From Anaerolineae bacterium (GTDB taxonomy: Bacteria; Chloroflexota; Anaerolineae; B4-G1; SLSP01): a stretch of DNA of 64,000 nt. Shown here piece by piece: positions 3,849 to 28,863 of this stretch. A program made the position numbers and the translations under genes. The notes under the pieces are model-generated. The model saw only the letters and a program-made list of their open reading frames with translations, was not told where the DNA came from and searched no databases. The DNA lies in NCBI GenBank assembly GCA_035347995.1, contig DAOPQD010000007.1:888-64887 (forward strand). The letters are read 5' to 3'. Every line of letters begins with the position of its first letter. Position 1 is the stretch's first letter.

Positions 3849-3874
3849 TGATCGCATATTCCGTATGTCACGTT

Positions 3875-6222: not shown

Positions 6223-6271
6223 GGACCGACTCCCAAAACTTGATGTGATAGGACTTACACGGGAAACACTT

Positions 6272-7276: not shown

Positions 7277-7381
7277 GGACCCTTCCTCACGTAGCAGCGC
7301 GTCGTGCGCGCGTCCGCCGCCTATTATAGCGCAAGTTGAGCGGACGACACAGTCCGTAATGCGTCATGCGTAAGATCTTCT

Positions 7382-7450
7382 CGGAAAATAGAGAGCAGTG
7401 AGCCGTGAGTAAAGAGCTGTCGCAGTCACGGCTCACGACTCACCACTCAC
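7382..7450. repeat. GTGAGCC-type intergenic hairpin element, copy A
   Basis: GAAAATAGAGAGCAGTGAGCCGTGAG...GAGCTGTCGCAG...TCACGGCTCAC. Near-identical copies occur at 28864-28938 and, inverted, at 32432-32500. The inverted repeat is GTGAGCCGTGA/TCACGGCTCAC. Confidence 0.85.
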
Positions 7451-7922: not shown

Positions 7923-8082
7923 CCCTGACCTCCTGAATTTCGTGAAAACCATTTCCCTCAGCTACAAAAACTGCGTGAACGCTTCGGGCGCTCATGACAT
8001 TATAACTTCAAACGGCGCGACAAAGTTCCCCAACGCCAGCGGGACGAGTGTATATGGATATATGGAATGGAAGGTCGCCCTA

Positions 8083-8111
8083 TTGACAGGCACTACAGAA
8101 GTGCGTATAAT
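8083..8111 (+). promoter_or_regulatory. consensus sigma70-type promoter TTGACA-17-TATAAT
   Basis: TTGACA at 8083-8088, a 17-nt spacer and TATAAT at 8106-8111, in an AT-rich gap about 130 nt upstream of the ROK regulator gene. Confidence 0.6.
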
Positions 8112-8118
8112 GAAGGTA

Positions 8119-8147
8119 TATTAATTTATCCTCTTGCGAAATTAATT
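8119..8147 (+). promoter_or_regulatory. inverted repeat TATTAATTT-N11-AAATTAATT (candidate operator)
   Basis: An 8/9 inverted repeat starts 8 nt downstream of the -10 box and would cover the predicted transcription start. Confidence 0.4.
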
Positions 8148-8239
8148 ACCGTGGGAGCAAGGGAGCGGGAACGCGACAGGATTTCTTACCGCCGGCCAGG
8201 ATTGGCCGCATCTCTCTAAACCGGAGGCGAGTAAGACCC

Positions 8240-13840: not shown

Positions 13841-13888
13841 CTTTCGCTGCGCCAACCCTACAAATAAATCCTTCAGGAGGCACTCGCA

Positions 13889-14551
13889 ATGCAATTCTTC
13901 CTCGATAGCGCACACGTGCATGAGATCGAACACGCACTCCAGATGTGGAATCTGGACGGGGTGACGACCAATCCCAGGCACATCCAGGCTTCCGGCAAGC
14001 CGTTCCTGACGGTGATTCGGGAGATCGCGGCACTGTTTGCCGGCACGGATAAGACCATCTCCGTGGAAGTGAACCCGCACCTGACGAGCTGGGAGGCCAT
14101 GGCCGCCGAGGCGGAGAAACTGGCGGCGCTCAGTCCCAATTTCGTCATCAAATTGCCCGCCACTGAGGCCGGCTTTAAGGGCGTCGCCGTGCTCAAAGAA
14201 AAGGGCATCCGCAGCAATCTCACGCTCGTCTTTTCGGCGGCGCAGGCGCTGCAGGCGATGCGAATGGGCGCTTTCTACGTCTCGCCCTTCATCGGTTGGA
14301 AAGAGGCCAACGCCGAGGAGACGCTGAGCATGATTCAGGACATCGTCGCCATCCGCGACAACTACGGGTTCAACACCGGCGTGCTCGTGGCGGCGCTCCG
14401 CAACGGGCGGCAGATGGTGGATGCCGCCGTCGCTGGCGCGGACATTGTCACCGCGGGCTTCGCGGTCTACCAAGAGGCCTTCGATCACCCCTACACGCAT
14501 GTCGGCCTGGCGCGCTTCCAGGGCTTTTGGGATCAGACGCCCTACGAATGA
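13889..14551 (+). CDS. transaldolase family protein / fructose-6-phosphate aldolase-like
   Basis: 220 aa. FFLDSA...DGVTTNP...VIKLPAT...NLTLVFS...YVSPFIGW is the short Tal/FSA class signature. Confidence 0.8.
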   Translation: MQFFLDSAHVHEIEHALQMWNLDGVTTNPRHIQASGKPFLTVIREIAALFAGTDKTISVEVNPHLTSWEAMAAEAEKLAALSPNFVIKLPATEAGFKGVAVLKEKGIRSNLTLVFSAAQALQAMRMGAFYVSPFIGWKEANAEETLSMIQDIVAIRDNYGFNTGVLVAALRNGRQMVDAAVAGADIVTAGFAVYQEAFDHPYTHVGLARFQGFWDQTPYE

Positions 14552-14637
14552 TGGCGGGAAATGGGAAGCGAGCGACGAGTCGTGAGCAGTGAGCCCATGG
14601 CTAGAAAATAACCCAATCAGCACACAAGGAGCATCCC

Positions 14638-16146
14638 ATGACACACGGCATTCTCATGCATTCTATCCACGACGATGCAGGCGTGGCGGTGATGGACCTC
14701 GCCCCCGGCGACGAGGTGGGGGTAGTAACCCTGGAAGGGGACTTCGTGACGACGCTCAAGGTGACCGAGGCGGTGCCGCTGGGGCACAAGATCGCCATGC
14801 GCGCGCTGCCTGCCGGGCACGTGCTGCTCAAGTACGCGCGCCCCATCGGCAAGACGACGCAGCCCATCGCCCAAGGCGCGCATGTCCACATCCACAACCT
14901 CAAAACCATGCGCTGGGACCTGGAACGGGCGGAAAAGCCCGCGACGTCCGTCAAGCCGCCGGAGCGGCTCTCGCTCGGCGGGCGCCAACCGGAGACGCTG
15001 CAGCTGCTGGGGTACCGGCGCGCAAATGGCCGCGTCGGCATCCGCAATCACGTGCTCATCCTGCCGGTAGATGACATCTCCAACGCCGCCGCCGAGGGCG
15101 TGAGCGCCCTCATCCAGGGCACGCTGGCGCTGCCCCATCCCTACGGGCGCTTGCAATTCGGCGAGGACCTGGAGCTCACCTTCCGCACGCTGGCGGGCAC
15201 GGGACGCAATCCCAACGTCGCCGCCGTCATCGTCATCGGCATCGAGCCCAAATGGACGCAGCGGATCGTGGACCGCATCGCCGAAACGGGCAAACCGGTC
15301 GCCGGCTTCAGCATCGAACGCTACGGCGATCTCAAAACTATCGAGATGGCCGCGCGCCAGGCGCTGGCGTACGTCCAGTGGGCCAGCGAGCTGCAACGCG
15401 AGCCGTTCGCCATCCATGAGCTGTGGATGAGCACCAAGTGCGGCGAATCCGACACCACCTCCGGGCTGGCGGCGAATCCCACCGTCGGGCGTGTCTTCGA
15501 GCGGCTGGCGAAAGCGGGAGCGACGTTGATTTTCGGCGAGACAACCGAAGTCACCGGCGGCGAGGACCTCATCATGAGCCAGTGCGCTACGCCAGAGGTC
15601 GCCGCCGAGTTCAAGCGCGTCTTCGACGATTACCAGGCGCTCATCGCCAGCCAGGGCGTGGATCTGCTCGGCTCGCAGCCCACGGAAGGCAACCTCCGCG
15701 GCGGGCTAACCACCATCGAGGAGAAGGCGCTGGGCAACATCCAGAAGATGGGACGCTGCACGGTACAATCGGTGCTGGGCCCTGCCATGGAGCCCTCAGG
15801 GCCGGGGCTGCACTTCATGGACTCCTCGAGCGCGGCGGCAGAAATGGTGACGCTCTGCGCCGCCGCCGGATCGGTCGTCCATTTCTTCCCTACCGGTCAG
15901 GGCAACATCATCGGCAACCCCATCCTCCCCGTCATCAAGCTCTGCGCGAACCCGCTCACCGTGGCGACAATGGCGGAGCACATTGACGTGGACCTCACCG
16001 GGCTGCTGCGGGTGGAGCTAAACCTCGATGAGGCCGCCGATCACCTGCTGGGGATGCTGGAGCGCACCATTTGCGGGCGCCTCACCGCCGCCGAGGGCTT
16101 GCGTCACAGCGAGTTCGTGCTGACCAAACTGTATCGCAGCGCGTGA
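14638..16146 (+). CDS. uxaA: UxaA family hydrolyase (altronate/galactarate dehydratase-like)
   Basis: 502 aa. N-terminal SAF domain ([26 protein letters not shown]...GAHVHIHN) followed by a UxaA C-terminal domain. Confidence 0.8.
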
Positions 16147-16176
16147 AGGCGCTACCGCATAAGGAGGAAAACTTCT

Positions 16177-17391
16177 ATGACCGGAAAAGAATTGCGCAGC
16201 CGCGCTTTCACCCTGAACCCAAATTTCAGTTATTTGCCCGACCCCGACCGTTATCTGATGGCGCGGGAGAGACCCCGTCATCGCTTCAACGTGATCGGCG
16301 TGGGCGTGAACGGCCAGGAGCACCTCCACATCACCCTGTTGGAAGGGCGCGCCACCATCCACGGGATCTACGATCCCAACCCCGGCAGCGTCGCCGGCGC
16401 GCAGCGCGCCTACAAGCAATTTGTGCCGCAGGGGGAGCTGGTCGTCTATGACTCGCTGGAAGCGGCCTGCCATGACCCGGCAGTGGATGGACTGATCATC
16501 AGCACGCCCAACTACACGCACCTGGAGCTGGTGCGCGTGGCGGCGAAATCGGGCAAGCACATCCTGCTGGAAAAGCCCATGGCGACCACCATTCCCGACG
16601 CCTATGAAATCCTGCAAATCGCCCAAAACCACAACGCCATTTTCCAGGTCGGCCTGCAATACCGGTACAAAGCCATCTACGTCGAGGCAATCTACGAGAC
16701 GTTGGTGCGCCGCTCGCTGGGCGAGGTCAAGCAAATCAGCATCATGGAACACCGCATCCCCTTTCTGGACAAGGTCAACCAGTGGAACAAATTCTCGAAA
16801 TACTCCGGCGGGACGCTGGTGGAAAAGTGTTGCCACTACTTCGACCTGCTCAACCTGTTCGCACAGGCCAGGGCAACGCGCGTCTTCGCCACGGGCAGCA
16901 TGGCGGTCAACTTCCGCGAGTTTGAGTACCGCGGCGAGAAATCCGACATCCTCGACAATGCCTTCGTGACGGTGCAGTACGCCAATGGCGTGCTGGGCAG
17001 CTTCAACCTGTGCATGTTCGCGCCGATGTTTTACGAGGAGCTCATCATCTGCGGCGACGAAGGGCGGCTCAAGGCCTACGAAAATCAGGACTTCCTGGCG
17101 CTGGCACGTCCGCACACGCATCTGGAAATTCTGCACGGCGAGGACCGGCCCGGGCGAGTCGGCGCCCCCGGCTATCCCGCCTACATCGAGGAGACCGGGC
17201 ACAACGGCGGCACCTTCTACGAACACGTCAACTTCATCGAGAACATCGAGGGGCGGCAGACGCAAACTGCCACGGCAGCCGAGGGGTTCTGGTCCGTCGT
17301 GGTGGGCGCCGCAGCCGAGGAATCGGTGAAAACAGGGCAGCCGGTCATCATCGCAGAGCTGCTGGAACGCTATGGGATAGATCTCCGCTGA
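16177..17391 (+). CDS. Gfo/Idh/MocA family oxidoreductase
   Basis: RFNVIGVGVNGQEH Rossmann start and EKPMATT motif. The RBS is TAAGGAGG. Confidence 0.8.
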   Translation: MTGKELRSRAFTLNPNFSYLPDPDRYLMARERPRHRFNVIGVGVNGQEHLHITLLEGRATIHGIYDPNPGSVAGAQRAYKQFVPQGELVVYDSLEAACHDPAVDGLIISTPNYTHLELVRVAAKSGKHILLEKPMATTIPDAYEILQIAQNHNAIFQVGLQYRYKAIYVEAIYETLVRRSLGEVKQISIMEHRIPFLDKVNQWNKFSKYSGGTLVEKCCHYFDLLNLFAQARATRVFATGSMAVNFREFEYRGEKSDILDNAFVTVQYANGVLGSFNLCMFAPMFYEELIICGDEGRLKAYENQDFLALARPHTHLEILHGEDRPGRVGAPGYPAYIEETGHNGGTFYEHVNFIENIEGRQTQTATAAEGFWSVVVGAAAEESVKTGQPVIIAELLERYGIDLR

Positions 17392-17498
17392 GGTACAGCC
17401 CCTGCGGCAATTTGTCTTTTCGCCCTGCGGGTGTACACTGTGAATCACCATACTTCATGGCGCTATAGTCAGGGGCGCACCCAGGAAAGGACAGCGAA

Positions 17499-17678
17499 AT
17501 GTTGCCGCGAATAGGCTTACCGGAAATTATTGTAGTTCTCGTGATCGCGTTGCTTATCTTCGGGCCGGGACGGATCACGAAGGTCGCCGGCGAATTGGGG
17601 AAGAGCATTCACGCCTTCCAGCATGGGCTGAAAGAGCAGGACAAGCCTGCTGACGAAAGCCAGCACGACGGCGCATAG
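17499..17678 (+). CDS. tatA: twin-arginine translocase subunit TatA (59 aa, below the ORF-track cutoff)
   Basis: I translated it by hand as MLPRIGLPEIIVVLVIALLIFGPGRITKVAGELGKSIHAFQHGLKEQDKPADESQHDGA, the canonical TatA/E TM plus amphipathic helix. Confidence 0.85.
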   Translation: MLPRIGLPEIIVVLVIALLIFGPGRITKVAGELGKSIHAFQHGLKEQDKPADESQHDGA

Positions 17679-17743
17679 ACCGCCTGACCTGGAGGTGAGG
17701 GCCTGACTCGCCCCCAGGTCGCTTCAGGCCGACGACTTACCCC

Positions 17744-18025
17744 ATGGATTTCTTCAACATCGGAACGCCCGAACTCCTCGTCATCCTCCTCATCGGGCTG
17801 CTGTTGTTTGGACCAGAGGAGCTGGTGAAATTCGCGCGTACAGCGAGCCACTATTTGCGCTCAGCCCAGCAGCTGTGGCGCGAGGTCGCCGCGCAGCTGA
17901 CGCCGGACCTCACGGCGCCTGCCCCCGACCCGCCCGCCGACAACACCGCCATGCCCACAGCCGCCGCCGATGACGACCTCCCCGCGCCGGATGAGACGGC
18001 GCCCCCTCCAGGTTACGGGCCATGA
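17744..18025 (+). CDS. TatA/TatB-like Sec-independent translocase subunit
   Basis: MDFFNIGTPELLVILLIGLLLFGPEELVKFAR followed by a Pro/Ala-rich tail. Its end overlaps the tatC start. Confidence 0.8.
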   Translation: MDFFNIGTPELLVILLIGLLLFGPEELVKFARTASHYLRSAQQLWREVAAQLTPDLTAPAPDPPADNTAMPTAAADDDLPAPDETAPPPGYGP

Positions 18026-18783
18026 AGCATAAAGAGCCGCAAGATCAAGAGCGCACCCTCCTCGAACATGTCACCGAATTGCGCGTGCGCCTGCTGCGGA
18101 GCCTCGCGGCGCTGGGAATCGGCAGTATCCTCGGCTCGTTCTTCGCCAATCAAGCCATCGCGATCCTCACCGCGCCCGTAGGGGACATGGAGCTCATCGC
18201 GGTCAGCCCCACCGCGCCACCGATCATCTTCTTCAAGGTCACGTTGCTGCTGGGATTGCTGATCACGCTGCCTTACATCCTCTATCAGCTCTACGCTTTC
18301 GTCGCGCCGGGATTGTTCCCCCACGAACGCAAATTCCTGTTGCAGAGCGTGCCGGGCGTGATCCTCCTGTTCATGCTGGGCGTCGCCTTCACCTTGCTGG
18401 TGCTGATCCCCTTCAGCATCCCCGTGCTGACGGGCTTCCTGAGTGACGTCGTGACCCCCACCTACACGCTGGAAGATTACCTGTCGTTCGTCACCACGCT
18501 GTTGTTGTGGATGGGCTTGCTGTTCCAGACGCCGCTGGTGATGTACACCCTCGCGCGGTTGGACATCGTCCAACCCGCCAGGCTCAAGCAGCTCCGCAAG
18601 CTCGTCATTTTCCTGGCAGCGGTCCTCGCGGCGGTCATCACGCCCACGACGGACCCCTTCACCATGCTGCTGGTGACCGGACCCTTCATCATCCTCTATG
18701 AGCTGGGCCTCCTGCTGGCCAGATTGGCACTGCGGCAACGGCGGACAGCGTCGTCAACGGCGGCGGGAGCGTCCGGCGATTGA
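18022..18783 (+). CDS. tatC: twin-arginine translocase subunit TatC
   Basis: 253 aa and 6 TM. LLEHVTELRVRLLRS near the N-terminus is the TatC signature. Confidence 0.85.
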   Translation: MKHKEPQDQERTLLEHVTELRVRLLRSLAALGIGSILGSFFANQAIAILTAPVGDMELIAVSPTAPPIIFFKVTLLLGLLITLPYILYQLYAFVAPGLFPHERKFLLQSVPGVILLFMLGVAFTLLVLIPFSIPVLTGFLSDVVTPTYTLEDYLSFVTTLLLWMGLLFQTPLVMYTLARLDIVQPARLKQLRKLVIFLAAVLAAVITPTTDPFTMLLVTGPFIILYELGLLLARLALRQRRTASSTAAGASGD

Positions 18784-18798
18784 CCCTCAGGCTAACGC

Positions 18799-18835
18799 AA
18801 AAAAACGTCGCCCTCTGATCTCTCAGAGGGCGACG
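18799..18835 (-). terminator. intrinsic terminator after tupA (hairpin also closes tatC)
   Basis: CGTCGCCCTCTGA-TCTC-TCAGAGGGCGACG, a 13-bp stem. On the minus strand it is followed by T7. Confidence 0.7.
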
Positions 18836-18857
18836 TGAAGCGGCTCCCGCGTCGCGA

Positions 18858-19697
18858 TTACTTCACGGCATCGGGGAAGAAGAGCGGCAAACCGCTCTTG
18901 GGTTCCGTGAAGGCAGCGATCTTCGCCTGCGTCTCCGGCGAGGTGATCCACTCGGTGAACTTCTGCGCGCCCTCGTAATTGATGTCCGGGTACTTCTCCG
19001 GGTTGACGGCGATGACGTGATAGGGGTTGAAGAGTTGCGCATCGCCCTCCACCAGAATCGGCAGGGCGTAGCCTTCAGCCGTGCGCGCCAGATAGGTGCC
19101 CCGGTCGGTGAGCGTGTAGGCGTTCATCTCCTGCGCCATGTCCAGGACGGCTCCCATCCCCTGACCGGCAGAGACATACCAGCTGCCCTCAGGCGTGACC
19201 CCGACCTTGGCCCAGATGCTCTTTTCCTTAGCATGGGTGCCCGAGTCGTCGCCGCGCGAGATAAAGGACGATTGCGTCTCCATGATCTTGCGGAAGGCCT
19301 CTACCGCGTCGGTCATGCCCTTGATGCCCGCCGGGTCTGCAGCAGGACCCACGATAACGTAATCATTGTGCATCACCGCGGTGCGATCGACGCCAAAGCC
19401 ATCTGCCACAAAGGTTTCCTCCGCCGCCGGGGAGTGCACCAGCAACACATCGGCGTCCCCGTTTTTGCCGGTCTCCATGGCCTGCCCGCTGCCCACAGCA
19501 ATGACCTGCACCTCAATGCCGGTCTGCTCCTTGAAATCCGGCAGCAGGTAATCCAGCAACCCGGAATCCTGGGTGCTCGTCGTTGTCGCCAGGATCAGGC
19601 GCCGGGGTGGCTCGGCGGTCGGGCTGGCGCACGCCGCCAACAACATCACCCATACCAAACACAACCAGGCCTTTTTCACAGAAAACCAACGTGTCAT
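18858..19697 (-). CDS. tupA: tungstate ABC transporter substrate-binding protein
   Basis: Lipoprotein signal (LLAACAS) and the ILATTTSTQDSGLLDYL motif (TTTS signature of TupA-type binders). Confidence 0.75.
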   Translation of the reverse strand: MTRWFSVKKAWLCLVWVMLLAACASPTAEPPRRLILATTTSTQDSGLLDYLLPDFKEQTGIEVQVIAVGSGQAMETGKNGDADVLLVHSPAAEETFVADGFGVDRTAVMHNDYVIVGPAADPAGIKGMTDAVEAFRKIMETQSSFISRGDDSGTHAKEKSIWAKVGVTPEGSWYVSAGQGMGAVLDMAQEMNAYTLTDRGTYLARTAEGYALPILVEGDAQLFNPYHVIAVNPEKYPDINYEGAQKFTEWITSPETQAKIAAFTEPKSGLPLFFPDAVK

Positions 19698-19827
19698 GCA
19701 TTACCTCCTGAAAAGTGATAAGGTGAAACGGCGGGATACGCAATATGTGCGGCACGACGCAACATGCCATGCGGGTCGCGCCGCACCCATTACCCATCCC
19801 AGCGGATCCCGCAGGACTCCTGCCGCC

Positions 19828-20556
19828 TCAGCACACCATCTCCCCGCGCACAAAGGCGCGTGTGCGCGCATCGGCCGGCGCCTCGAAAAAGGCCTGCGTG
19901 TCCGCCAGTTCCACAATCTGGCCGTTGAGCAGAAAAGCCACGCGATGCGCCATTCGCCGCGCCTGGAAAATGTTGTGCGTCACGATGACGACCGTTGTGC
20001 CGCGCTGCTGGTTCATGTCCGTCACCACGCGCTCGATGAGGCCGACGTTGTAGGGATCGAGGTTCGCGGTCGGCTCGTCGAGCAGCAAAACTTGGGGACG
20101 AATGATCAACGCGCGGGCGAGTGCCACACGCTGCGCCTCGCCGCCGGAAAGGGTACGCGCCCTGGCGCGCGCCAGCTCCTTCAGCCCCAACAGCTCCAAC
20201 GTCGCGGTGAGGTCTGCCCTGCCATCGCGGGCTCCGCGCAGGCGCAGGCCGTAAGTCACATTTTTGGTCACGGTGGTTGAGAGCAACGCCGGACGTTGAA
20301 ACACCGTCGTGACCTGCCGCCGCAACGCCAGCGGCGCTTCGCCTCGCGGCAGGGATTGCCCCTGGAAAACGAGGGTCCCGGCGTCCGGCTGTTCCAGGAA
20401 ATTCAACAGCCGCAACAGCGTGGATTTTCCGGCGCCGCTGGGTCCTACCAGCGCCAGCATCTCTCCGGCATAGATGTCGAGCGCGCTGATGTCCAGCACA
20501 GTCCGCCCGGCGTAAACTTTGCGCACGCCATGAAGGGTGTACATGGCTTCACTCAT
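19828..20556 (-). CDS. tupC: ABC transporter ATP-binding protein (tungstate, TupC-like)
   Basis: Start ATG 20556 (MSEAMYTLHG). Walker A GPSGAGKST, signature LSGGEAQR and Walker B LLLDEP are present. The 493-aa track ORF is read-through into the permease gene in another frame. Confidence 0.8.
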   Translation of the reverse strand: MSEAMYTLHGVRKVYAGRTVLDISALDIYAGEMLALVGPSGAGKSTLLRLLNFLEQPDAGTLVFQGQSLPRGEAPLALRRQVTTVFQRPALLSTTVTKNVTYGLRLRGARDGRADLTATLELLGLKELARARARTLSGGEAQRVALARALIIRPQVLLLDEPTANLDPYNVGLIERVVTDMNQQRGTTVVIVTHNIFQARRMAHRVAFLLNGQIVELADTQAFFEAPADARTRAFVRGEMVC

Positions 20557-21281
20557 ACGTGCTGCCCCTGCAATTGTGACACCACCAGATTCACCAGGAA
20601 TGAGAGCAACAACAGCACCATGCCCAGGCCGAGCGCCAGGTCGAAGTTGCCGCGTCGCGTCTCCAGCATGATGGCGGTGGTAAGGACGCGCGTGTATCCC
20701 TCGATGTTGCCGCCCACCATCATCACCGCGCCCACCTCGGAGATGACGCTGCCCAGACCGCCCACCAACGCCACCAACACCCCCAGCCGCGCCTCCTGGA
20801 CCACGGCCTCCGCGACCTGCAGGCGGGTCGCTCCCAGCGCCTGCAGCTGCCGTCCCAGGTCGGGATCCACGCCCGCCACTGCCGCCATGGTAAAGCCCAC
20901 CACCAGCGGCGTCGCGATGATGATCTGCGCCCAGATCATCGCCTGGGGAGTGAAGAGCTCCGGAATGCCGGGGAGATTCAACGGCGCGAGGATGCCGTTC
21001 CGTGAGAGCAACAGGTAGACGAACAGGCCCACAACCACCGGCGGCAGGCCCATTCCCGTGTAAACGAGCACCTGGAACAGACGTTTGCCAGGGAAGTGCA
21101 ACAGCCCCAATAGCACACCGCAGGGAACACCGATCACCGCGCTGACCAGAACGGCGATGCCGCTCACCTGCGCCGTGCAGGCAATGACTTCCCAGACGAC
21201 CGGGTCGCCGGTAAGAAGTAGCCGCAGTCCCTGTACCAGACCTGACCAAAGGACGTCCACGCGATCGCTCCCGACGTTCAA
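20553..21281 (-). CDS. tupB: ABC transporter permease (tungstate, TupB-like)
   Basis: Multi-TM protein with an ATGA overlap to tupC. The true start may be GTG 21260, which follows GGGAG, because a plausible promoter (TTGCTA-16-TATCAT, 21296-21323) lies very close to 21281. Confidence 0.75.
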   Translation of the reverse strand: MNVGSDRVDVLWSGLVQGLRLLLTGDPVVWEVIACTAQVSGIAVLVSAVIGVPCGVLLGLLHFPGKRLFQVLVYTGMGLPPVVVGLFVYLLLSRNGILAPLNLPGIPELFTPQAMIWAQIIIATPLVVGFTMAAVAGVDPDLGRQLQALGATRLQVAEAVVQEARLGVLVALVGGLGSVISEVGAVMMVGGNIEGYTRVLTTAIMLETRRGNFDLALGLGMVLLLLSFLVNLVVSQLQGQHV

Positions 21282-21356: not shown

Positions 21357-21390
21357 AAAAAAGCCCGCCGCAGGCAACCCCACGGCGGGC
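21357..21390 (-). terminator. intrinsic terminator after the TPR gene
   Basis: GCCCGCCG-N12-CGGCGGGC followed by T6 on the minus strand, 19 nt after the stop at 21409. Confidence 0.7.
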
Positions 21391-21408: not shown

Positions 21409-23994
21409 TCAAGCGGCAGGCGTGAGGCCCAGCCTCTGGCGGCAGAATTCCAGGTGATCCTGAGTCAGCAGAGCTTCGTCCGCAAGGGACACGGCGCGTT
21501 CCAGGTGCGGCAACGCCTCGGCAAACAGGCCACGTTTGCAATAGGTCCAGCCCAGCGTGTCCAAAGCGGGCGCCAAAAGGCCGACGTCCTCCAGCTGCGA
21601 GGCCAACCGCACGGCGCGTTCCGCCAGCGCGGTGGCCTCTTCAAGACGTGCGCCCATGGTATCCGCATAGAGCCAGGCAAGGGCGTTGTAAGGTTCAGGG
21701 CGATCAGGCGCCAGCTGCAGAGCGTGCTCGAAATCCGCGATGGCCTGGTCGAAGGCCAGCAAGGCGGCATAGGTGTCGCCACGATCCAGATAGGCCTGAA
21801 AGCTCTCCGGGTCGGCGAGCCCGGCGACGTGCGCGGCGGCCGCTTCCTCCTCACGTCCCAGACGCTGCAGGGCGGCGCTCCGCACCTGCTGGACCCAGAG
21901 CAATGAGGGGTCTTGAACCAGCGCACGTTCTGCATGTTCCAAAGCCGCCGCGTCGTTCCCCAATAGATAATTCACCCCCGCCAGCTGCCCCCGGCCCCAG
22001 GCGTAGCCAGGGTCAAGTTCGAGCGCCTGCAGCAATGAGGACGCCGCGCAAGCATAGGCGCCGAGTTGCCGGAGCGCCAGCCCTTTCTCCCCATGCAGCC
22101 AGGCCAGTTGCGACTCACGCTCCAGCGCGCGCTCCAGCGCCTGGACGGCCTCAGCATAGCGACGCGCCTGCCGTAACACCACCCCCTTCCAGGCCCAGGC
22201 CCAGACATACTGCGGCGAGAGCGCCAACGCCCGATCGAAGGTCAAAAGCGCACTGCGCTGCCGCTCTAAAGCGGAATAGGTCGCCCCCAGGGATCCCAAG
22301 GCCCAGAAATCGGAGCCGTTCAGCGCCACCGCACGTTCCAGAAGGACCAACGCTTCCGCATGTTGCCCCAAGAAGCGGAGGGTCTCACCATAGCGCGCCA
22401 AGGCCCACTGATACTCGGGCGCGCTTTCCACCGCCCGGCGGAAAGCCTCGACCGCTTCGCGGTGTCGTCCCGCCATGCGCAAGGCTTCTCCCAACTCCCC
22501 ATAAGTGCGCGGTTGCGCCGCATTGTTCGCCAGCTCGAGATCTACCGTCGCCTGCAGAGCAGTGATGGCTTCCTCAAAGCGTCCCAGCAAGCGCAGGCAG
22601 GCGCCGCGATAATACCCCGCCTCGGCATTGCCGATGTCGTGTTGCAACACCGCATCGAAAGCAGCCAGCGCTTCCGCATACTGATCCAAGTTGTACCACG
22701 CCACACCCTGGAAATAATGCAGGAACGGGACATCCGGATTCAGCGTCAGCGCATACTCCAAAACGGGCAGCGCTTCGGCGTAGCGCTCTGACCCCACGAG
22801 CAGCATCCCGAGCTGTGCATGGGCGTAGAAATACTCGGGCTCCAGGGAAATCGCCGTGCGAAACGCCTCCAGCGCCTCTTCAGTCCGACCCAGGTCACTC
22901 AACACGGCACCGCGTTCCGCGTGGGTCCAGGGTGAGTCCGGCTCCTGCGCCAGGACTTCATCCAGCAATTGCAGGGCCGCGTCATAACATTCGAGATGCC
23001 GTAGAATCGCCCCCTTCTGCGCTTTGGCCGCCGACCACTCCGGTTGCAGCTCCAGCGCTTGATTGATGGCGCCCAACGCCAGATCAAACTGCTCGCTCTC
23101 ATGGTACGCCTGCGCCAGGCGATAATGCACCTCTGCCGAGGGCGCCAACGCCAGGGCCTGTTTCAAGGCCTCGATCGCCTCTGCATAGCGATCCTGGGCA
23201 TAGAGCGCCAGTCCCCGCAATAGATGCGCCGCGCCGGCATTGGGATCCAGTTGGTAGATCGCGCGCTCGGCAATCGCCTGCGCCTCCTGAAGCTGACCCC
23301 GCTCCAGCAACTGACGCGCTGTTTCGACAAAAGCTCCCACCGCCAGGGCGGATTCCCCCGCCGTCTGATAGGTCACCCCTAGTTCGAAGGTATACTGCGG
23401 ATCCGCGGTCAACGCTGCCAGCAGCCGCAGCACGGACAGGCTCCCCTGGAGGTCGCCGACCCGTCGCAGCAGCGTCCCCTTCCCCAACAGAGCCTCGCGG
23501 TCCTCTGGATCGAGCGCCAGCGCCCGGTCAAACTCACGCAACGCCTCCTCGTAATTCCCCAGGCGCGCATAAATCAGGCCCAGACCACTGTGGAAAGGAG
23601 CCCACTCCTCCCGCAAGCCTACCCCCTCCAAAAACACGCCAAGGCTTTCAGCAGTCTTGTTCTGATTGTAGAGCGCCCAGCCCAGGGACTCCAGCGTCTC
23701 CACATCGGCGGGATTAAGAGCCAACATGCGCCGCAAGACCGCTTCAGCCGCGGCGTGATCGTGCCGACGGGGCAACTCCGCCGCCAGCTGACGGTAGATG
23801 TCGCAGGCCGCATCGAATTTTTCGAGCGCCTCATACGTGCGTCCCAACGCTTCGCACACCTCTGCATAGGGAAAATCAGCGTCGCGGTCTTCTGCCAGGG
23901 CCTGCTGCAACGCGCTTTCAGCCTCTGCGTAACGCGCCGCTGCCGCCAGCGCCAGTCCGAGATCAGCAAACAGCGTCCCGATAGATTGTGTCAT
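21409..23994 (-). CDS. tetratricopeptide repeat protein (861 aa, TPR throughout); gene D of the four-gene operon
   Basis: The pattern A..Y.LG.AL...G.Y.EA...F..AL.L.P recurs more than 20 times. Start ATG 23994 is preceded by AAGGAGGG and forms an ATGA overlap with the upstream gene's stop. Confidence 0.85.
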   Translation of the reverse strand: MTQSIGTLFADLGLALAAAARYAEAESALQQALAEDRDADFPYAEVCEALGRTYEALEKFDAACDIYRQLAAELPRRHDHAAAEAVLRRMLALNPADVETLESLGWALYNQNKTAESLGVFLEGVGLREEWAPFHSGLGLIYARLGNYEEALREFDRALALDPEDREALLGKGTLLRRVGDLQGSLSVLRLLAALTADPQYTFELGVTYQTAGESALAVGAFVETARQLLERGQLQEAQAIAERAIYQLDPNAGAAHLLRGLALYAQDRYAEAIEALKQALALAPSAEVHYRLAQAYHESEQFDLALGAINQALELQPEWSAAKAQKGAILRHLECYDAALQLLDEVLAQEPDSPWTHAERGAVLSDLGRTEEALEAFRTAISLEPEYFYAHAQLGMLLVGSERYAEALPVLEYALTLNPDVPFLHYFQGVAWYNLDQYAEALAAFDAVLQHDIGNAEAGYYRGACLRLLGRFEEAITALQATVDLELANNAAQPRTYGELGEALRMAGRHREAVEAFRRAVESAPEYQWALARYGETLRFLGQHAEALVLLERAVALNGSDFWALGSLGATYSALERQRSALLTFDRALALSPQYVWAWAWKGVVLRQARRYAEAVQALERALERESQLAWLHGEKGLALRQLGAYACAASSLLQALELDPGYAWGRGQLAGVNYLLGNDAAALEHAERALVQDPSLLWVQQVRSAALQRLGREEEAAAAHVAGLADPESFQAYLDRGDTYAALLAFDQAIADFEHALQLAPDRPEPYNALAWLYADTMGARLEEATALAERAVRLASQLEDVGLLAPALDTLGWTYCKRGLFAEALPHLERAVSLADEALLTQDHLEFCRQRLGLTPAA

Positions 23995-24995
23995 AAGTCG
24001 TCCCTCCTTGCGTTCCACGCCGGCGCCGCCTCATACGCCTGCTGCCAGGCCTCCGGCGGGAACTGCGCTCCCAGCCGATAAGATTGCTCCAGGCCCTCAT
24101 AGAGTTCGCGGGCCAGCCGCCGCGCCTGGAGGCGATGGAAGGTCGCCACGGCGTCCGGCTGGACGCCGCAGGCAGCCACGGCCTGAGTCCAGAGATCCTT
24201 GAGGCGCGCTATCGCCGGCGCATACGGCCCCAAAGCGTAGACGTCCGCCTGCGCCGCCGAATTCATCCGCTCCAACACGGTGAGCAAAACCTCGAACCGC
24301 TCGGCGTGGGTGGGATGGCGACCGCGCCGCAGCAAAGCTTCCGCCGGATTGAGATGCAGCGGCGTCATATCGAAAGCGAACGCCGGCCCCTGGCAGTAAA
24401 GCGCGAAAGCATCCGCAAAGAATTCGTGCAGGTGCGCGCTGCGCTGGCTCACGTAGGACTCCCGCTGCTGCCGGGTCCAGCTTTCGGCCTTGGGATGCCC
24501 TTCGACCAGGGTCAGCACCTGCCGTGCCAGGAATTCCAGGAAGGCGGGCGTGTTCAAAGCCGCCACGTGTCCAAATTCATGCGCCATGAGCGGGAGATTC
24601 CAGATCTCAGCATCGGGGAAATGCCACAGGTGCAGCCGTTGCCGCTGCAACAGCAGCTGCCGGTCGTCCCGCGCGCCCAGGTCACTGGCCTCTGGCCGGG
24701 CCATCGCCAGCGAGCTCACCTCCGGCAGCCAGAGCGCCGCTTCCGCCGCATCGCAAGCGCCCGCCCCGAGGTCAAACCGCGCGACGAGGGCGGCTTCACG
24801 CGCGGCGACGAAGGCCTCGAGCGCCGCACTGCGCCCGCGTTTGGCGATCCAGAAGCCGTAAGCATGCGCCAGGAGGGGCAGATACCACACGTCCCAGCGG
24901 GGGAGCGGCAGGCGGACGAGAACATCGTCGGCCCCCTCTTCCACCGCCAGCGCCTCCGGGAGATCTTCAGCCGTCCGCCGGCCCAGGATCACCAC
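23991..24995 (-). CDS. putative zinc metallopeptidase (HEFGH ... EFFAD, gluzincin-like); gene C of the operon
   Basis: 334 aa with no signal peptide. WNLPLMAHEFGHVAA is followed 48 aa later by HEFFADAFA (ExxxD-type third ligand motif). The N-terminal half has a degenerate copy, WYLPLLAHAYGFWIA. Confidence 0.55.
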   Translation of the reverse strand: MVILGRRTAEDLPEALAVEEGADDVLVRLPLPRWDVWYLPLLAHAYGFWIAKRGRSAALEAFVAAREAALVARFDLGAGACDAAEAALWLPEVSSLAMARPEASDLGARDDRQLLLQRQRLHLWHFPDAEIWNLPLMAHEFGHVAALNTPAFLEFLARQVLTLVEGHPKAESWTRQQRESYVSQRSAHLHEFFADAFALYCQGPAFAFDMTPLHLNPAEALLRRGRHPTHAERFEVLLTVLERMNSAAQADVYALGPYAPAIARLKDLWTQAVAACGVQPDAVATFHRLQARRLARELYEGLEQSYRLGAQFPPEAWQQAYEAAPAWNARRDDL

Positions 24996-25357
24996 GGGGG
25001 ACTAGGGGGGACGCCCGCTTCCTGGATCAGCCCTTCGATGAAACGCTGGGCGTGATCGGCGAGGGCCTGCGCCGGCGGCAGCTCGCGGAGGGCCACGCCG
25101 CCCAGGAATTCCAACGCTTCTTCAAACAACGCCTGCGCGCGCAGTTCCAGAGTGGCGAAAGCGGCCCACGCCTCTGCCACGTTGCCGGCAGCGGCCTGCG
25201 CCTCGAGCGCCGCGAGGTCGTGCAGGAGCGGGCTGACGGCGCGCTTGAAGTGTCCGCTGAGCAATCTGCCGTAAGGGGCCGGCAGCTGTGGAGCGTCCAC
25301 CACCCGCAGCAGACTCTCAAAATCGGCCCGCAGTTGGGCGAGCTGCGCCGCGAGCAT
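24989..25357 (-). CDS. hypothetical small helical protein; gene B of the operon
   Basis: 122 aa, Ala/Leu/Glu-rich, with no motif I recognise. It starts 8 nt after gene A's stop and overlaps the gene C start by 7 nt (GTGGTGA). Confidence 0.5.
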   Translation of the reverse strand: MLAAQLAQLRADFESLLRVVDAPQLPAPYGRLLSGHFKRAVSPLLHDLAALEAQAAAGNVAEAWAAFATLELRAQALFEEALEFLGGVALRELPPAQALADHAQRFIEGLIQEAGVPPSPPW

Positions 25358-25365
25358 GCCGTCTC

Positions 25366-26520
25366 TCAGGCCAGGGCAGCCCTGGAAATCTGCACGACCC
25401 CCGGCACAAAGGTGATCAACGTGGTCGTATCGGCGTGATCCATCGCGTTGAGCAGGGTGAAGTCCATGGCGACCAGGTAGAAAGTGCCAAAGAGCAGCAC
25501 CGCCGTGGCCTCGGGGAGCAGCTTCCCCACGAATTTCTTGCCGGTGTTCAACGCCTTGACGAGGCGTCCCATCATCGCCGCCTGCCCGGTGAAGTGCGCT
25601 TGAAGCGCCAGCAGTTTTTGCACACCGCTGTCAATGGCGGCGCCATCCGCCGTCGTTTGGGCCAGCAGCTCCCGAATCGTCTGAGTCGAAGGGGTAACGC
25701 CCAGGCTGTAGGCCAGGAACTGATCCACAAGATTGCCGCCCTCTTTGAGCGTCTTGAGAAGTTCCTCCGCCTTCTTCTGCAGCTCCGGGACGAGGTCTTT
25801 TCCCAGCAGCTCCGTGAGCGCGTCCATCGCTTTCACCGCCAGTGCCAATCCCTTAGACACCAGCTTGCCCAGGCCCGGCAGCGCGCCCGCCTGTTTGCCG
25901 ATCATGCCGATCGCCTCTCCCAACAGCTTATCGTCGAGGTCGTCCACGCCGGTCAGCGCGGCGGTCAGCACTTTCTTCGTCTCCTCTTGCAGCGCCTTGA
26001 AGACCGCCTCAAGTTGCTTCTCAAAGGCCGCCTTTGCCGTCGGCGCGTCAGGGACCGCAGCGGCTTTGGCAGGTGCGGGGACCTCGTCGAGGCCAAAACG
26101 CCGCAGGGTGTCCGGCGCCGCCAGCTCCGGCCCGGCGACCGCCTGCGTCACCTGCTGCAAGTCCCTGGAGACGGCCTCGAGCTCCTCTGGCGTCGCCGCT
26201 TCTGGCGTCTCGCCTACGGCGCCGCCGGCGACGAACAACGCCGCGGCGACCTCCATATCGGCGACAACGCCGGCAAGGATCTCCGCCGCGACTCGCTCAC
26301 GCTCGGGGGTAGCCGCCTGGCCCTTGACCAGCGCCTCGTCGAACGCCGCGCGCCGCGAGCCGGCAACCTGGTGCTCGTAGCGCTCCGCCGCCCGCGCCAG
26401 CTGTTCGCTCGCGTAGAGAGCGTCATCCGTGCCCAGCGAACCGCGCAGCATGTCGAATGCTGCGGTCACGCCGCGCAAACCACCCGCCAAATCCGCCCTG
26501 AATTCGCCGTACCCCGTCAT
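25366..26520 (-). CDS. hypothetical helical protein with hydrophobic C-terminal segment; gene A of the operon
   Basis: Start ATG 26520 (MTGYGEF) is preceded by AAGGAG. 384 aa, rich in Ala/Leu/Lys/Glu amphipathic stretches, with a hydrophobic segment LLPEATAVLLFGTFYLVAMDFTLL near the C-terminus. I recognise no family. Confidence 0.55.
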   Translation of the reverse strand: MTGYGEFRADLAGGLRGVTAAFDMLRGSLGTDDALYASEQLARAAERYEHQVAGSRRAAFDEALVKGQAATPERERVAAEILAGVVADMEVAAALFVAGGAVGETPEAATPEELEAVSRDLQQVTQAVAGPELAAPDTLRRFGLDEVPAPAKAAAVPDAPTAKAAFEKQLEAVFKALQEETKKVLTAALTGVDDLDDKLLGEAIGMIGKQAGALPGLGKLVSKGLALAVKAMDALTELLGKDLVPELQKKAEELLKTLKEGGNLVDQFLAYSLGVTPSTQTIRELLAQTTADGAAIDSGVQKLLALQAHFTGQAAMMGRLVKALNTGKKFVGKLLPEATAVLLFGTFYLVAMDFTLLNAMDHADTTTLITFVPGVVQISRAALA

Positions 26521-26687
26521 GGTTTTCTCCTTATCTTCAGTGAACAATGGACCGAAAGCAGAGAGCAACGCCTCGATATGATTGGGGGGACATCTCCTCC
26601 CAGCGGTCAAATCGCTCGGGGAGTCACACGCACGATGCCACAGTCGCAAACTATGGCGCCCTTGCCGCATTGATTTCATTGTATAAG

Positions 26688-26718
26688 CAAAACCCCTCGG
26701 CGTCAATGGGCCGAGGGG
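26688..26718 (-). terminator. intrinsic terminator after glmS
   Basis: CCCCTCGGC-N8-GCCGAGGGG followed by TTTTGCTT on the minus strand, 20 nt after the glmS stop. Confidence 0.65.
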
Positions 26719-26739
26719 TCGAGCGAGAAAGTCTGCACC

Positions 26740-28581
26740 TCACTCCACCGTCACGCTCTTCGCCAGATTGCGCGGCTGATCCACATCCGCGCCGCGCCGC
26801 ACGGCGATGGCATACGCCAGCCATTGCAGCGGGATCACGTTCAGCACGGGGCTGAGATACGGCGAGCTGACCGGCACTTCCAGCACATAATCGGCGCGCT
26901 CGTGAGCCAGGGTATCCCCCTGCTGCACCACGGCGATGACGACCCCATTCCGGGCGTGCACCTGCTCCATCTGACTGAGCATCTTGTCGTAGACGCCATC
27001 CCGCGGCGCCAGGGTCACCACCGGCATGAGCGAGTCAATCAGGGCGATGGGACCGTGTTTCATCTCACCGGCGGGATAGCCTTCAGCGTGAATGTAGGAA
27101 ATCTCCTTGAGCTTGAGCGCGCCCTCCAGGGCGACGGGATAGTTGATGCCACGTCCAAGGTACAGGAAATGCTCACGCTTGTGGAAGATTTCGGCCAGCT
27201 GGTGATAGAGGGGAAGCTCCTCGGCCACTTGCCCCACGAGTTGCGGCAACCGGGCGAGATCATCCACCGCCCGCCGCAATGCCGGTCCGTCCATCACCCC
27301 GCGTTTCTCCGCCAGCGCCAACGCCAGCAGATAGAGATCCACCAGGCTGGTCGTGAACGCCTTGGTCGAGGCCACCCCGATTTCCGGCCCGGCCTGCATG
27401 AGGATGTAGCCGTTGGAACTGCGCTGCGCCTGGCTGCCCAGCACGTTGACGATAGACCAGAGCCGCGTCCCGCGCGCCTGCCCCTCCTCCATCGCTGCCA
27501 GCGTGTCCACCGTCTCCCCCGACTGCGTGATCGCCAGCACCACATCTTCCGGGCCGATCAGCGGGTCGCGGTAGCGGAACTCCGAGCCATAATCCACTTC
27601 CACAGGCAGGCGCGCCAGGTTTTCCAGGAGGAATTTCCCCACCAGTCCGGCGTGATACGAGGTGCCGCAGGCCACGATGGTCATCTTCCGCAAAGCGCGG
27701 GCCTCCGCTGCGGTGAGAGGCAGCGTATCCAGGTGTACCCGTCCCGCGTGGAAATCCGCCCGTCCACGGATCGTGTCGGTGATCGCGCGGGGCTGCTCGG
27801 CGATTTCCTTCTGCATGAAGTGACGGTACTGTCCCTTCTCGGCGGCGACCGGATCCCAGGAAATGACGTGAATGGTCGGCTCGAGGCGCCGTCCTTGCAG
27901 ATCGAAGATCTCGACGCGCTCCGGCGTCAACGCCGCCAGCTGCCCGCTCTCCAGGAAGATCACGCGGCGGGTGTGTTCAAGGATGGCCGGAATGTCCGAG
28001 GCGACAAAGGCTTCGCCCTCCCCCAGGCCAATGACGATCCCGCCAGCGTTGCCCAGCCGGGCAGCTACCAACCGTCCCGGCTCGCGCGCGCTGAGAAAGA
28101 CGAAAGCACTCGCACCCTCGATTTCCGGAAGCGCACGCTGCACAGCCGTGAGCAGCTCCCCATCCTGCAGCCCGGCATCCACCAGCTGCGCAATCACCTC
28201 CGTGTCCGTCTCGGAGGTGAAGATGACGCCCTGATCCTGCAGCTCCTGGCGCAAGAGGGCGTAGTTTTCGATAATGCCGTTGTGCACGACAGCCACGCGG
28301 CGATTCAATCCCAGGTGGGGATGCGCGTTTTGCTCGGTGACGCCGCCGTGCGTGGCCCAGCGCGTGTGCCCGATGGCGATGTGACCGCACAGCGGTTCAG
28401 CCTGCAGCCGCTCGACCAGCTGGGACAGTTTGCCGACCGCGCGCACGGTCTTGAGGTCTTGCTCTTCCGTCAACAGCGCCAATCCGGCAGAATCGTACCC
28501 CCGGTATTCCAGGCGCTTCAAACCGTTCACCACGACCGACGCCGCATCACGCGGCCCCACATATCCGACAATGCCACACAT
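26740..28581 (-). CDS. glmS: glutamine--fructose-6-phosphate aminotransferase
   Basis: Start ATG 28581 (MCGIVGYVG, the obligatory N-terminal Cys after Met) is preceded by AGGAGG. Two SIS domains follow and the protein ends ...KSVTVE. Confidence 0.95.
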   Translation of the reverse strand: MCGIVGYVGPRDAASVVVNGLKRLEYRGYDSAGLALLTEEQDLKTVRAVGKLSQLVERLQAEPLCGHIAIGHTRWATHGGVTEQNAHPHLGLNRRVAVVHNGIIENYALLRQELQDQGVIFTSETDTEVIAQLVDAGLQDGELLTAVQRALPEIEGASAFVFLSAREPGRLVAARLGNAGGIVIGLGEGEAFVASDIPAILEHTRRVIFLESGQLAALTPERVEIFDLQGRRLEPTIHVISWDPVAAEKGQYRHFMQKEIAEQPRAITDTIRGRADFHAGRVHLDTLPLTAAEARALRKMTIVACGTSYHAGLVGKFLLENLARLPVEVDYGSEFRYRDPLIGPEDVVLAITQSGETVDTLAAMEEGQARGTRLWSIVNVLGSQAQRSSNGYILMQAGPEIGVASTKAFTTSLVDLYLLALALAEKRGVMDGPALRRAVDDLARLPQLVGQVAEELPLYHQLAEIFHKREHFLYLGRGINYPVALEGALKLKEISYIHAEGYPAGEMKHGPIALIDSLMPVVTLAPRDGVYDKMLSQMEQVHARNGVVIAVVQQGDTLAHERADYVLEVPVSSPYLSPVLNVIPLQWLAYAIAVRRGADVDQPRNLAKSVTVE

Positions 28582-28639
28582 GGGGAAGGCCTCCTTTGGG
28601 GGAATAAAAGGCGTCAGCCGCAAGGCACGCGGATTCTCG

Positions 28640-28826
28640 CGTGACCCGCGCCTGCGTGATGGCCCTGTCGCACCGGCTGTCCCGGCTGTTGCCGGCCGGT
28701 TTTGGAGTGCGACTTTCACTTCGGGAGGGGAAAACGAGGGAAGGACCTTTCCCTGGCGGCATCCGCCGACGGCTCGATCAACCGCCACCTCGTCTTCCTG
28801 TCATCGGGTGACAGGAACTGGCGCTA
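28640..28826 (-). ncRNA. glmS ribozyme: glmS ribozyme (GlcN6P-dependent self-cleaving leader)
   Basis: The minus strand reads AGCGCCAGUUCCUGUCACCCGAUGACAGGAAGACGAGGUGGCGGUUGAUCGAGCCGUCGGCGGAUGCCGCCAGGG. This matches the conserved A/GCGCC cleavage site, GACGAGG and AUCGA..UCGGCGGAUGCC core. It lies in the glmS 5' UTR. The 3' boundary is approximate. Confidence 0.85.
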
Positions 28827-28863
28827 TTTTCCCCTGGACAAAATGGACGAGATCACCCCCCTT

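Follow-up and report, generated by a model that had tools for sequence, protein, structure and literature searches.

Several bacterial conflict systems combine a protease with a large repeat protein that serves as sensor, among them the bacterial gasdermins with their proteases, TPR-CHAT/Csx29 and the peptidases of the ternary systems (Kaur et al. 2020, PMC7159879). Another arrangement pairs a TIR protein with a tetratricopeptide repeat (TPR) protein in two-gene antiphage systems such as BcTir/Tpr (bioRxiv 10.1101/2023.05.26.542521). Here we examine a locus in a 64,000-nucleotide (nt) stretch of an Anaerolineae genome (contig DAOPQD010000007.1, positions 888 to 64,887; hereafter the window), in which positions 21409-26520 carry four co-oriented open reading frames (ORFs) on the minus strand, named A, B, C and D. 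We find that the locus derives by reduction from a conserved but so far uncharacterised cassette made of a helical protein (A), zincin-like modules (M) and a large TPR protein, and that it consists of three genes, a frameshift and two deletion scars. We hold this account of its anatomy and history with high confidence. An initial annotation of the sequence had named the locus the window's best candidate for an undescribed system, a claim that holds, and had drawn it as four coupled genes, an anatomy that does not.

The cassette shares with the protease and repeat-sensor systems an operon logic in which a large repeat protein is encoded together with a peptidase and a putative effector that damages membranes or carries TIR. 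The likeness extends to the variable effector position, to a patchy distribution heavy in Chloroflexota and Acidobacteriota, and to a CHAT-like gene at one locus (L004). In contrast, the peptidase of the cassette is zincin-like and is not a caspase, CHAT, trypsin or subtilase protease, and the cassette contains no NTPase (STAND, MoxR or GTPase). Moreover, A is predicted to be all-helical and to lack a gasdermin fold, pseudo-protease paralogues are integral to the cassette, and FlhA-type ring domains are an unusual addition to it. Likewise, some members of the module family resemble BcTir/Tpr in that a TIR protein is followed by a TPR protein, but the TIR domain is here fused to a full zincin-like module, and the window version has A in place of TIR. 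The cassette is not described in those passages of the Kaur et al. survey of TPR and peptidase conflict systems that mention zincins and metallopeptidases, and the literature that we searched contained no description of the cassette or of the module family. By analogy, gasdermin with protease, TPR-CHAT and the TIR and TPR pairs would be its nearest mechanistic relatives, while the parts of the cassette themselves appear to be new families.

The ORFs exist as first annotated. Re-reading the sequence, we located AAGGAG 8 nt 5' of the ATG of A, a gap of 8 nt between the stop codon of A and the ATG of B, overlaps of GTGGTGA between B and C and of ATGA between C and D, and D's own ribosome binding site (RBS), AAGGAGGG, upstream of its start. 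C begins with a GTG that has no Shine-Dalgarno sequence. The flanking terminators that had been claimed correspond to two hairpins (Table 1), C indeed carries HEFGH followed 48 amino acids (aa) on by EFFAD, and D is a TPR protein from end to end.

Comparison with relatives gives B and C a different meaning. Orthologues of A at 74, 68 and 65% identity lie on syntenic contigs with the order glmS - A - X (857-865 aa) - Y (437-441 aa) - TPR, with either Tat genes or the ABC transporter of the window downstream. It is the ABC transporter genes that follow in L006, the closest relative, indicating that the chromosomal position of the cassette is conserved in this clade. X is a tandem pair of modules, M1 and M2, and Y is a third paralogue, M3. 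BLASTP and TBLASTN align B with residues 1-120 of X (75% identity to X of L006) and residues 1-126 of C with residues 121-252 of X, a remnant of M1 with a degenerate HAYGF. Residues 125-324 of C correspond to residues 613-812 of X at 74.5% identity and constitute an M2 with intact HEFGH, EFFAD and HP..H..R motifs; the end of C falls ~50 aa short of the C-terminus of X. Thus B and C, annotated as separate genes, are reading-frame pieces of one ancestral gene, X.

Three lesions separate the window copy from its relatives. A four-way DNA alignment reveals a 2-nt insertion in a run of C nucleotides relative to three relatives, and tblastn switches from frame 1 to frame 3 at 25001/24998. The insertion accounts for the TGA of B and for the forced GTG start of C without a Shine-Dalgarno sequence, and the GTGGTGA overlap, which had been taken as a sign of translational coupling, is a by-product of this +2 frameshift. 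Second, residues 253-612 of X (1,080 nt) are deleted in frame, with a junction at 24621|24620 where the two halves of X share CAT|T microhomology. The deletion joins a degenerate paralogue, marked by HAYGF, to the active HEFGH module, and its scar gives C the look of an internal pseudo-duplication. Third, a deletion of ~1.5 kb took the tail of X and the entire Y gene; its junction lies just 5' of the conserved RBS and start of D, and D's own RBS therefore stands directly behind the truncated C. No M3/Y-like sequence was found elsewhere within the window, so the supposed four-gene unit is short of a module gene that all close relatives carry. Four separate coupled genes with an internally pseudo-duplicated metallopeptidase would require the ORFs, their overlaps and a pair of similar segments in C, and all of these exist. 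However, every relative has a single gene collinear with B plus C, the two pieces are separated by a 2-nt insertion missing from P0166, a partial protein encoded in a MAG of the same 90% cluster, and the 'duplication' is the junction between M1 and M2, leaving this literal version hardly tenable.

The lesions differ in how widely they occur among the sequences read. The exact 122-aa B is found on 34 contigs in NCBI, JGI, ENA and Logan assemblies of Anaerolineae metagenome-assembled genomes (MAGs), and C occurs as 333- or 334-aa variants in many assemblies. The lesions are therefore not artefacts of assembly or sequencing; for the frameshift in particular, sequencing error is ruled out by the 34 independent contigs. 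An exact look-up of the C protein returned no record, presumably owing to differences in start codon. Both deletions are present in every C variant read that spans them. In contrast, the reading frame of P0166, the partial protein (190 aa) just mentioned, continues unbroken across the frameshift site ('…EAGVPWSPVVILGRR…'), and the frameshift is therefore a recent polymorphism; P0166 stops before the junction of the 1,080-nt deletion and is informative for the frameshift site only. In this Anaerolineae population the frameshift would have come after the deletions, splitting the remaining gene in most sampled strains. Three C variants of 323 aa (P0170, P0171 and P0173) have an additional 10-aa in-frame deletion that turns …AVAACGVQPDAVATFHRLQ… into …AVATSHRLQ…, and given this deletion the C gene is still changing structurally in some strains. 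A is full length (384 aa) in 10 of 10 variants read, and D (861 aa) in 13 of 13. Amino-acid diversity in C is 0.86%, not above the 2.4% of A or the 2.2% of D, and no relaxed constraint on C is apparent from this comparison, which draws on few and unmatched samples.

What remains in the window is A, the TPR protein and the catalytic core of M2, and this copy may be either a minimal working version or a system being lost. That it is a non-functional remnant, with the middle of the operon turning into a pseudogene and A and D not yet decayed, is a possibility of real weight, short of our preference. Three independent lesions in one lineage point that way (the +2 frameshift, the 1,080-nt deletion and the ~1.5-kb deletion of the X tail and M3), as do the further loss of 10 aa in some strains, the 126-aa orphan piece of M1 that C carries, its missing Shine-Dalgarno sequence, and the fact that M3 is retained in all other A-containing cassettes examined. 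Against decay, the large deletions are in frame or have clean gene boundaries and spare all catalytic motifs of M2, A and D are full length in every variant read, and the diversity of C is not elevated, as far as unmatched samples tell. Furthermore, two-gene systems of a TIR-M2 fusion and a TPR protein occur naturally, so that M3 is dispensable in some versions, and the GTGGTGA overlap would permit termination and reinitiation. Whatever its state, the locus carries a caution for annotation, namely that a GTGGTGA 'coupling' and an 'internal duplication' can signal a frameshift and a deletion scar.

We next consider the cassette beyond this population. By our definition it requires, side by side and in the same orientation, an A homologue, a large TPR protein and at least one M module (HExGH plus ExFAD). 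The window contains A, M2 (within C) and D, with M1 fragmentary and M3 missing, and thus falls within this definition. A profile of the module identified 10 loci among GTDB species representatives, in Solibacteraceae, Pyrinomonadaceae, Blastocatellia, Anaerolineae, an actinomycete MAG and the isolate Methylovulum miyakonense HT12. Further loci from metagenomes bring the total to ~20, from Chloroflexota, Acidobacteriota and one gammaproteobacterium. Labelling of all loci with hidden Markov models shows a constant order, A - M1+M2 - M3 - TPR, in which A has 376-402 aa, M1+M2 are usually fused (~820-890 aa) but may form two genes, M3 has 440-600 aa and the TPR protein 760-1,620 aa. A short form has the order A - M2 - M3 - TPR, as in Methylovulum miyakonense HT12 (L019, 3119-9216). 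A homologues adjoin modules in other phyla too, and the co-occurrence of A, zincin-like modules and the TPR protein at ~20 loci in several phyla shows that the adjacency extends well beyond one strain. Together these results show that the cassette is real, conserved and undescribed.

The module family itself is larger. An exhaustive profile search retrieved 1,719 representative clusters (50% identity) at E<=1e-3, of which 707 reach E<=1e-30, and the source names are 'hypothetical protein' throughout. Word-indexed homologue searches under-reported the family, with 11 matches for C and 4-6 for A, and the exhaustive profile search was needed. A metagenome scan with a 12-sequence alignment yielded 4 loci only, because the AHEFGH pattern is common to unrelated metalloproteases.

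Each M module is built of a ~120-aa helical N-domain, to which B corresponds in M1, followed by a zincin-like domain. In every locus the complete set of HE(F/Y)GH, E-x-F-A-D and, further downstream, H-P…R is retained by M2 alone. At the first of these motifs M1 reads HDYG(F/Y) or GRAVG, and M3 of the long form has HEFGE, YEFGR and similar variants; in both, the Glu of the third-ligand motif is lost as well. Judging by these motifs, M1 and M3 of the long form would be pseudo-enzymes. M3 of the short form often has HExxH (HEFWH, HEYGH or HEFGH in L019, L022, L023, L026 and L028). Invariant positions across 94 diverse members are the two H, the E and the G of HEFGH, the downstream R and the D of E-x-F-A-D; the E of the latter motif and the H-P pair come close to invariance (>=90%).

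Anthrax lethal factor carries HEFGH plus a Glu in EFFAE ~45 residues downstream. The two marks by which a putative zincin is recognised, the HExxH motif and a downstream Glu, are both present in the C sequence. When the 94 members were compared singly with Pfam, matches stayed below threshold, and the recurrent ones were all zincins: ATLF/anthrax lethal factor (8 of 94, best 9.7e-5), M48, M9, M78 and Zn_peptidase_2. One family member gave a weak match to the capP model of PADLOC. Because of these sub-threshold zincin matches and the lethal-factor-like HEFGH…EFFAE pattern, M2 is probably a gluzincin, of a new family and not a member of M34. C had no match to PF07737 (ATLF) at E<=1, and no family member reached the M34/ATLF gathering score. 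A, B and C match no model in Pfam, NCBIfam or PADLOC, which agrees with the earlier impression that A and B fall outside known families and pathways; A and the B/C protein correspond to no characterised family. Sequence and profile searches of the PDB returned nothing meaningful for C, the one similarity being the HEFGH hexapeptide of matrix metalloproteases, and lethal factor was not retrieved by the profile search with the module. Compared with gluzincins of the lethal factor type (MEROPS M34; ATLF PF07737), M48 and the M78 group of ImmA/IrrE/CapP, the module appears to share the HEFGH helix and a Glu ~35-55 residues on in an E-x-F-A-(D/E) helix. In contrast to them, it is preceded by the ~120-aa helical domain, is followed by a helical tail with an LNxAW motif, occurs as a set of active and inactive paralogues, and its AlphaFold2 (AF2) model matches no peptidase by Foldseek.

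A was annotated as a helical protein with a single hydrophobic segment. The AF2 model is all-helical, in keeping with the first half of this description, whereas the second half needs amending, since a second and less conserved hydrophobic stretch covers residues 81-102. In a 13-sequence alignment, A has an N-terminal helical bundle (~1-130), a variable Pro/Ala-rich linker and a C-terminal helical domain (~160-384). The linker conserves RFG(F/L)DEV within an otherwise variable segment, and in L005 A is naturally split into two genes exactly at the linker. The C-terminal domain ends in a conserved hydrophobic helix followed by MD(Y/H)ADT; Kyte-Doolittle maxima over 19 residues are 1.8-2.4 in most homologues, with L018 (1.56) under the 1.6 threshold. 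The conserved helix, the two-domain build, the linker motif and the natural split in L005 suggest that A may be a membrane effector. Single-sequence searches of the PDB with A returned nothing meaningful, and a search with its profile returned only designed helical repeats. Relationships to ESCRT-III, PspA and Vipp1 were considered and rejected (best match CHMP1B at E 0.58; no Pfam match), and ClyA-type and FlgN-like proteins were dropped along with ESCRT-III/PspA at E values of 0.6-0.9. A gasdermin was likewise rejected, given the all-helical prediction and the lack of a Pfam gasdermin match.

The orthologues of D (58-69% identity) are the terminal TPR genes of the cassettes in relatives, and its start codon and RBS are conserved. 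With the NCBIfam model LcrH_SycD, D exceeds the cut-off (111.9 vs 104.8 bits), a score summed from 8 generic TPR stretches; D was not retained as a true orthologue of MamA or SycD, since such scores are generic to TPR. Matches to TPR-S (sensor) in the cognate TPR proteins stay below the Pfam cut-off of 27.6 bits except in L019 (40.1 bits). In five loci (L004 and L012-L015) the TPR protein is much longer, 1,450-1,620 aa. In L014 and L012 a direct scan shows that it ends in a complete FlhA/SctV cytoplasmic domain (FHIPEP 321-654; E 1e-34 and 1e-44), and in L004, L013 and L015 FHIPEP is listed in precomputed annotations of the TPR protein. A ~585-aa protein encoded next also resembles the FHIPEP cytoplasmic part (E 2e-30 in L014; partial in L012, 26.4 vs a cut-off of 29.1 bits). 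To our knowledge, FlhA_C has not been described outside type III secretion.

These domains invite the reading that the cassette is an export or insertion device assembled from parts of type III secretion systems. The TPR protein would then act as a class-II chaperone of the SycD/LcrH type, docked in some lineages by FlhA/SctV-type cytoplasmic rings, and a translocator-like A would be processed by the zincin and delivered to the membrane. The likeness lies in the complete FlhA_C-like domain at the C-terminus of some TPR proteins with a second FlhA_C-like protein next to it, in the LcrH_SycD score of D, and in the helical build of A with its C-terminal hydrophobic segment. However, that score accumulates over generic repeats, no FlhA membrane domain or other secretion gene occurs in any cassette locus, and no FHIPEP domain is found in the window D by Pfam, nor in the rest of its clade and the short-form cassettes. 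TIR fusions do not suit an export role either, and we regard this reading as very improbable.

We favour, tentatively and at somewhat less than even confidence, the reading that the cassette acts in conflict or immunity by way of a protease, with a TPR-gated zincin controlling the membrane-active effector A. Taken as one account with the anatomy described above, it comes close to an even chance. The TPR protein would serve as scaffold or sensor and would gate M2, a gluzincin endopeptidase; in full versions the pseudo-protease partners M1 and M3 would add to this gating. Upon a trigger, M2 would cleave or release A at the conserved linker (RFGxDEV), and the freed C-terminal domain of A would insert into the membrane and damage it, so that the cell stops growing or dies. 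Where, in other lineages, M2 is fused to a TIR domain, that domain would stand in for A, acting by its release or oligomerisation.

The clearest indication of a conflict role comes from such fusions. P0116 (666 aa) and P0120 (634 aa) carry an N-terminal TIR/SEFIR domain (TIR_2 at 51-58 bits vs a cut-off of 28) fused to a complete M2 with HEFGH and EFLAD, and a TPR gene follows directly downstream, with no A. It follows that M2 and the TPR protein form the minimal core and that an effector domain of the classic immune type can occupy the position of A. Upstream of the fusion, L030 and L032 both carry a Maf gene. Likewise, TBLASTN against plasmids detected two distant homologues with HE(I/L)AH, EEFxxD and HPxD motifs (HEIAH/HELAH, EEFxCD and HPxD). 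They are the last gene of operons with the order regulator, PD-(D/E)XK nuclease, Piwi (prokaryotic Argonaute, pAgo), small protein (~120-130 aa) and M-like protein, surrounded by genes for a CBASS phospholipase, SIR2, an AAA-ATPase and ubiquitin-like proteins. The literature searched on long-B pAgo does not mention the pair of small protein and M-like protein.

The gene before M2 varies as well. It is usually A, is astacin/matrixin-like in L020, and is missing in L023. In L004, which has no recognisable A, a gene for a CHAT/caspase-like peptidase (4390-5691; PF12770, E 1.4e-6) lies ~1 kb upstream of three module genes, with three small ORFs between. In L022 (1-2386 and 2909-6095) a short-form cassette has two genes of the TniQ family (Tn7-like transposition) beside it, together with a GAF-histidine kinase/response regulator pair, which suggests that this cassette is on a mobile element. 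The TPR-S (sensor) matches of the cognate TPR proteins, nearly all sub-threshold, the patchy spread over phyla and the decay in this lineage suggest a fit with a conflict role.

Several observations weigh against this reading. The AF2 model of the module (11-sequence alignment; predicted local distance difference test score (pLDDT) 74.5, predicted template modelling score 0.80) is essentially all-helical, with a low-confidence segment just before HEFGH, and Foldseek retrieves nothing for it from the PDB or BFVD at E<0.2; the basis of the zincin assignment is therefore the motifs and the sub-threshold profile matches. The model of A is poor (pLDDT 43.8), and conserved Asp residues in its hydrophobic helix mean that this helix could be buried instead of transmembrane. 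Cleavage of A by M2 is pure conjecture. The window copy lacks the M3 that most A-containing cassettes have, and its M2, with no Shine-Dalgarno sequence, depends on reinitiation. PADLOC-DB v2 gave no match beyond generic TPR models (for D, PDC-M16B and similar), and the intact relatives behaved alike. Flanking genes are mostly housekeeping genes with few defence or mobile-element neighbours; among 99 flanking proteins there were only scattered defence matches (DpdF, PsyrT, subtilase and TniQ) and no convincing enrichment. No copies were found in phage and viral collections, and in the Anaerolineae clade the cassette is fixed beside glmS and looks vertically inherited, not island-like.

Some of the same observations would suit a housekeeping proteolytic or assembly machine, in which the TPR scaffold and the zincin handle quality control or processing of a membrane-associated helical protein: the stable synteny in several Anaerolineae genomes (glmS upstream, transporter or Tat genes downstream), the mostly metabolic flanking genes, and the lack of PADLOC matches and of copies on phage or viral contigs. 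Such a machine is, however, difficult to reconcile with TIR fusions to M2 and with pAgo-linked distant homologues in defence islands, nor would it predict a patchy distribution over unrelated phyla, a variable first gene, or the easy loss and decay in this population. We therefore consider it improbable.

The cassette is adjoined upstream by glmS (26740-28788), whose 5' leader contains a complete glmS ribozyme/riboswitch (28657-28836, minus strand; Rfam RF00234, 78.2 bits, E 4e-17) that we consider notable in a Chloroflexota/Anaerolineae genome. Directly downstream lies an ABC transporter set (18858-21281, minus strand) of permease, ATPase and a periplasmic binding protein of the PBP_like_2/SBP_bac_11 type. 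Between 19000 and 29500, both strands carry many long overlapping ORFs in other frames or on the opposite strand, high-GC artefacts without homologues; examples are 25288-26673 (plus strand, 461 aa) and 26824-28644 (plus strand, 606 aa), which are not genes. Coordinates of the features are collected in Table 1.

Table 1. Features of the window locus and of related loci, with coordinates on the sequence named in the first column.
Sequence	Feature	Position	Strand	Basis or remark
Window	Gene A	25366..26520	-	384 aa; first gene of the cassette; ORF and RBS; orthologues at 65-74% identity
Window	ORF B	24989..25357	-	122 aa; X residues 1-120; N-terminal helical domain of M1
Window	ORF C	23991..24995	-	334 aa; GTG start; M1/M2 chimera
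Window	Gene D	21409..23994	-	861 aa; TPR repeats throughout
Window	Candidate sigma-70-like promoter, TTGACG-17-TACAAT	26678..26706	-	Consensus match only; 5' of A, overlaps glmS terminator
Window	Intrinsic-terminator-like hairpin closing the upstream glmS unit	26691..26720	-	
Window	Strong intrinsic-terminator-like hairpin closing the unit	21363..21390	-	12 pairs and T-run
Window	Conserved linker motif RFGLDEV, A residues 141-147	26080..26100	-	A alignment; candidate cleavage or docking site, function inferred only
Window	Conserved hydrophobic segment of A, residues ~334-360, then MD(Y/H)ADT	25441..25521	-	Kyte-Doolittle, alignment; candidate membrane-inserting helix
Window	Frameshift site, C6 run with 2-nt insertion	25005..25010	-	DNA alignment, tblastn
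Window	Junction of the 1,080-nt in-frame deletion (X residues 253-612)	24618..24623	-	CAT|T microhomology
Window	HEFGH zinc-binding/catalytic motif, C residues 139-143	24567..24581	-	
Window	EFFAD motif, putative third zinc ligand (Glu) of gluzincin	24411..24425	-	
Window	Second deletion junction (~1.5 kb)	24010..24022	-	X tail and whole Y/M3 gene gone
L030	TIR-M2 fusion, P0116	1258-3258		
L031	TIR-M2 fusion, P0116	232-2232		
L032	TIR-M2 fusion, P0120	1972-3876		
L024 (NZ_CP089544.1, Spirosoma oryzicola plasmid)	pAgo-linked operon	2349-8504		
L025 (NZ_CP072143.1, Rhizobium plasmid)	pAgo-linked operon	3757-9023		
L014	TPR-FHIPEP_C gene and following FHIPEP_C-like gene	12768-19345		
L012	TPR-FHIPEP_C gene and following FHIPEP_C-like gene	12836-19092		

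Together our data show that the family and its cassette are a good lead and that the window copy is reduced and may be degenerating. That A-M-TPR represents an unrecognised class of prokaryotic immune or cell-suicide system, with a lethal-factor-like zincin, pseudo-protease paralogues in a hetero-oligomer and gating by a giant TPR sensor, is on present evidence unlikely, if well within the range of serious options. If true, the FlhA/SctV-type ring domains in the sensor of some lineages would make an NTPase-free 'inflammasome-like' platform, the zincin would release interchangeable effectors (A, TIR domains or other proteases) on sensing an invader, and the window would hold a system pared to its minimal core of effector, protease and sensor. 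The module family is large, has no counterpart in Pfam, NCBIfam, PADLOC or the PDB, and is concentrated in the poorly studied Chloroflexota and Acidobacteriota; the cultured strain Methylovulum miyakonense HT12 offers a testable cassette. The partnership with a TPR protein, the active and inactive paralogues, the TIR fusions, the pAgo-linked relatives and the FlhA-type rings point to a new kind of signalling in bacterial conflict systems, gated by a protease, and the cassette would add a metalloprotease branch to the theme of protease-activated effectors known from gasdermins and CHAT proteases.

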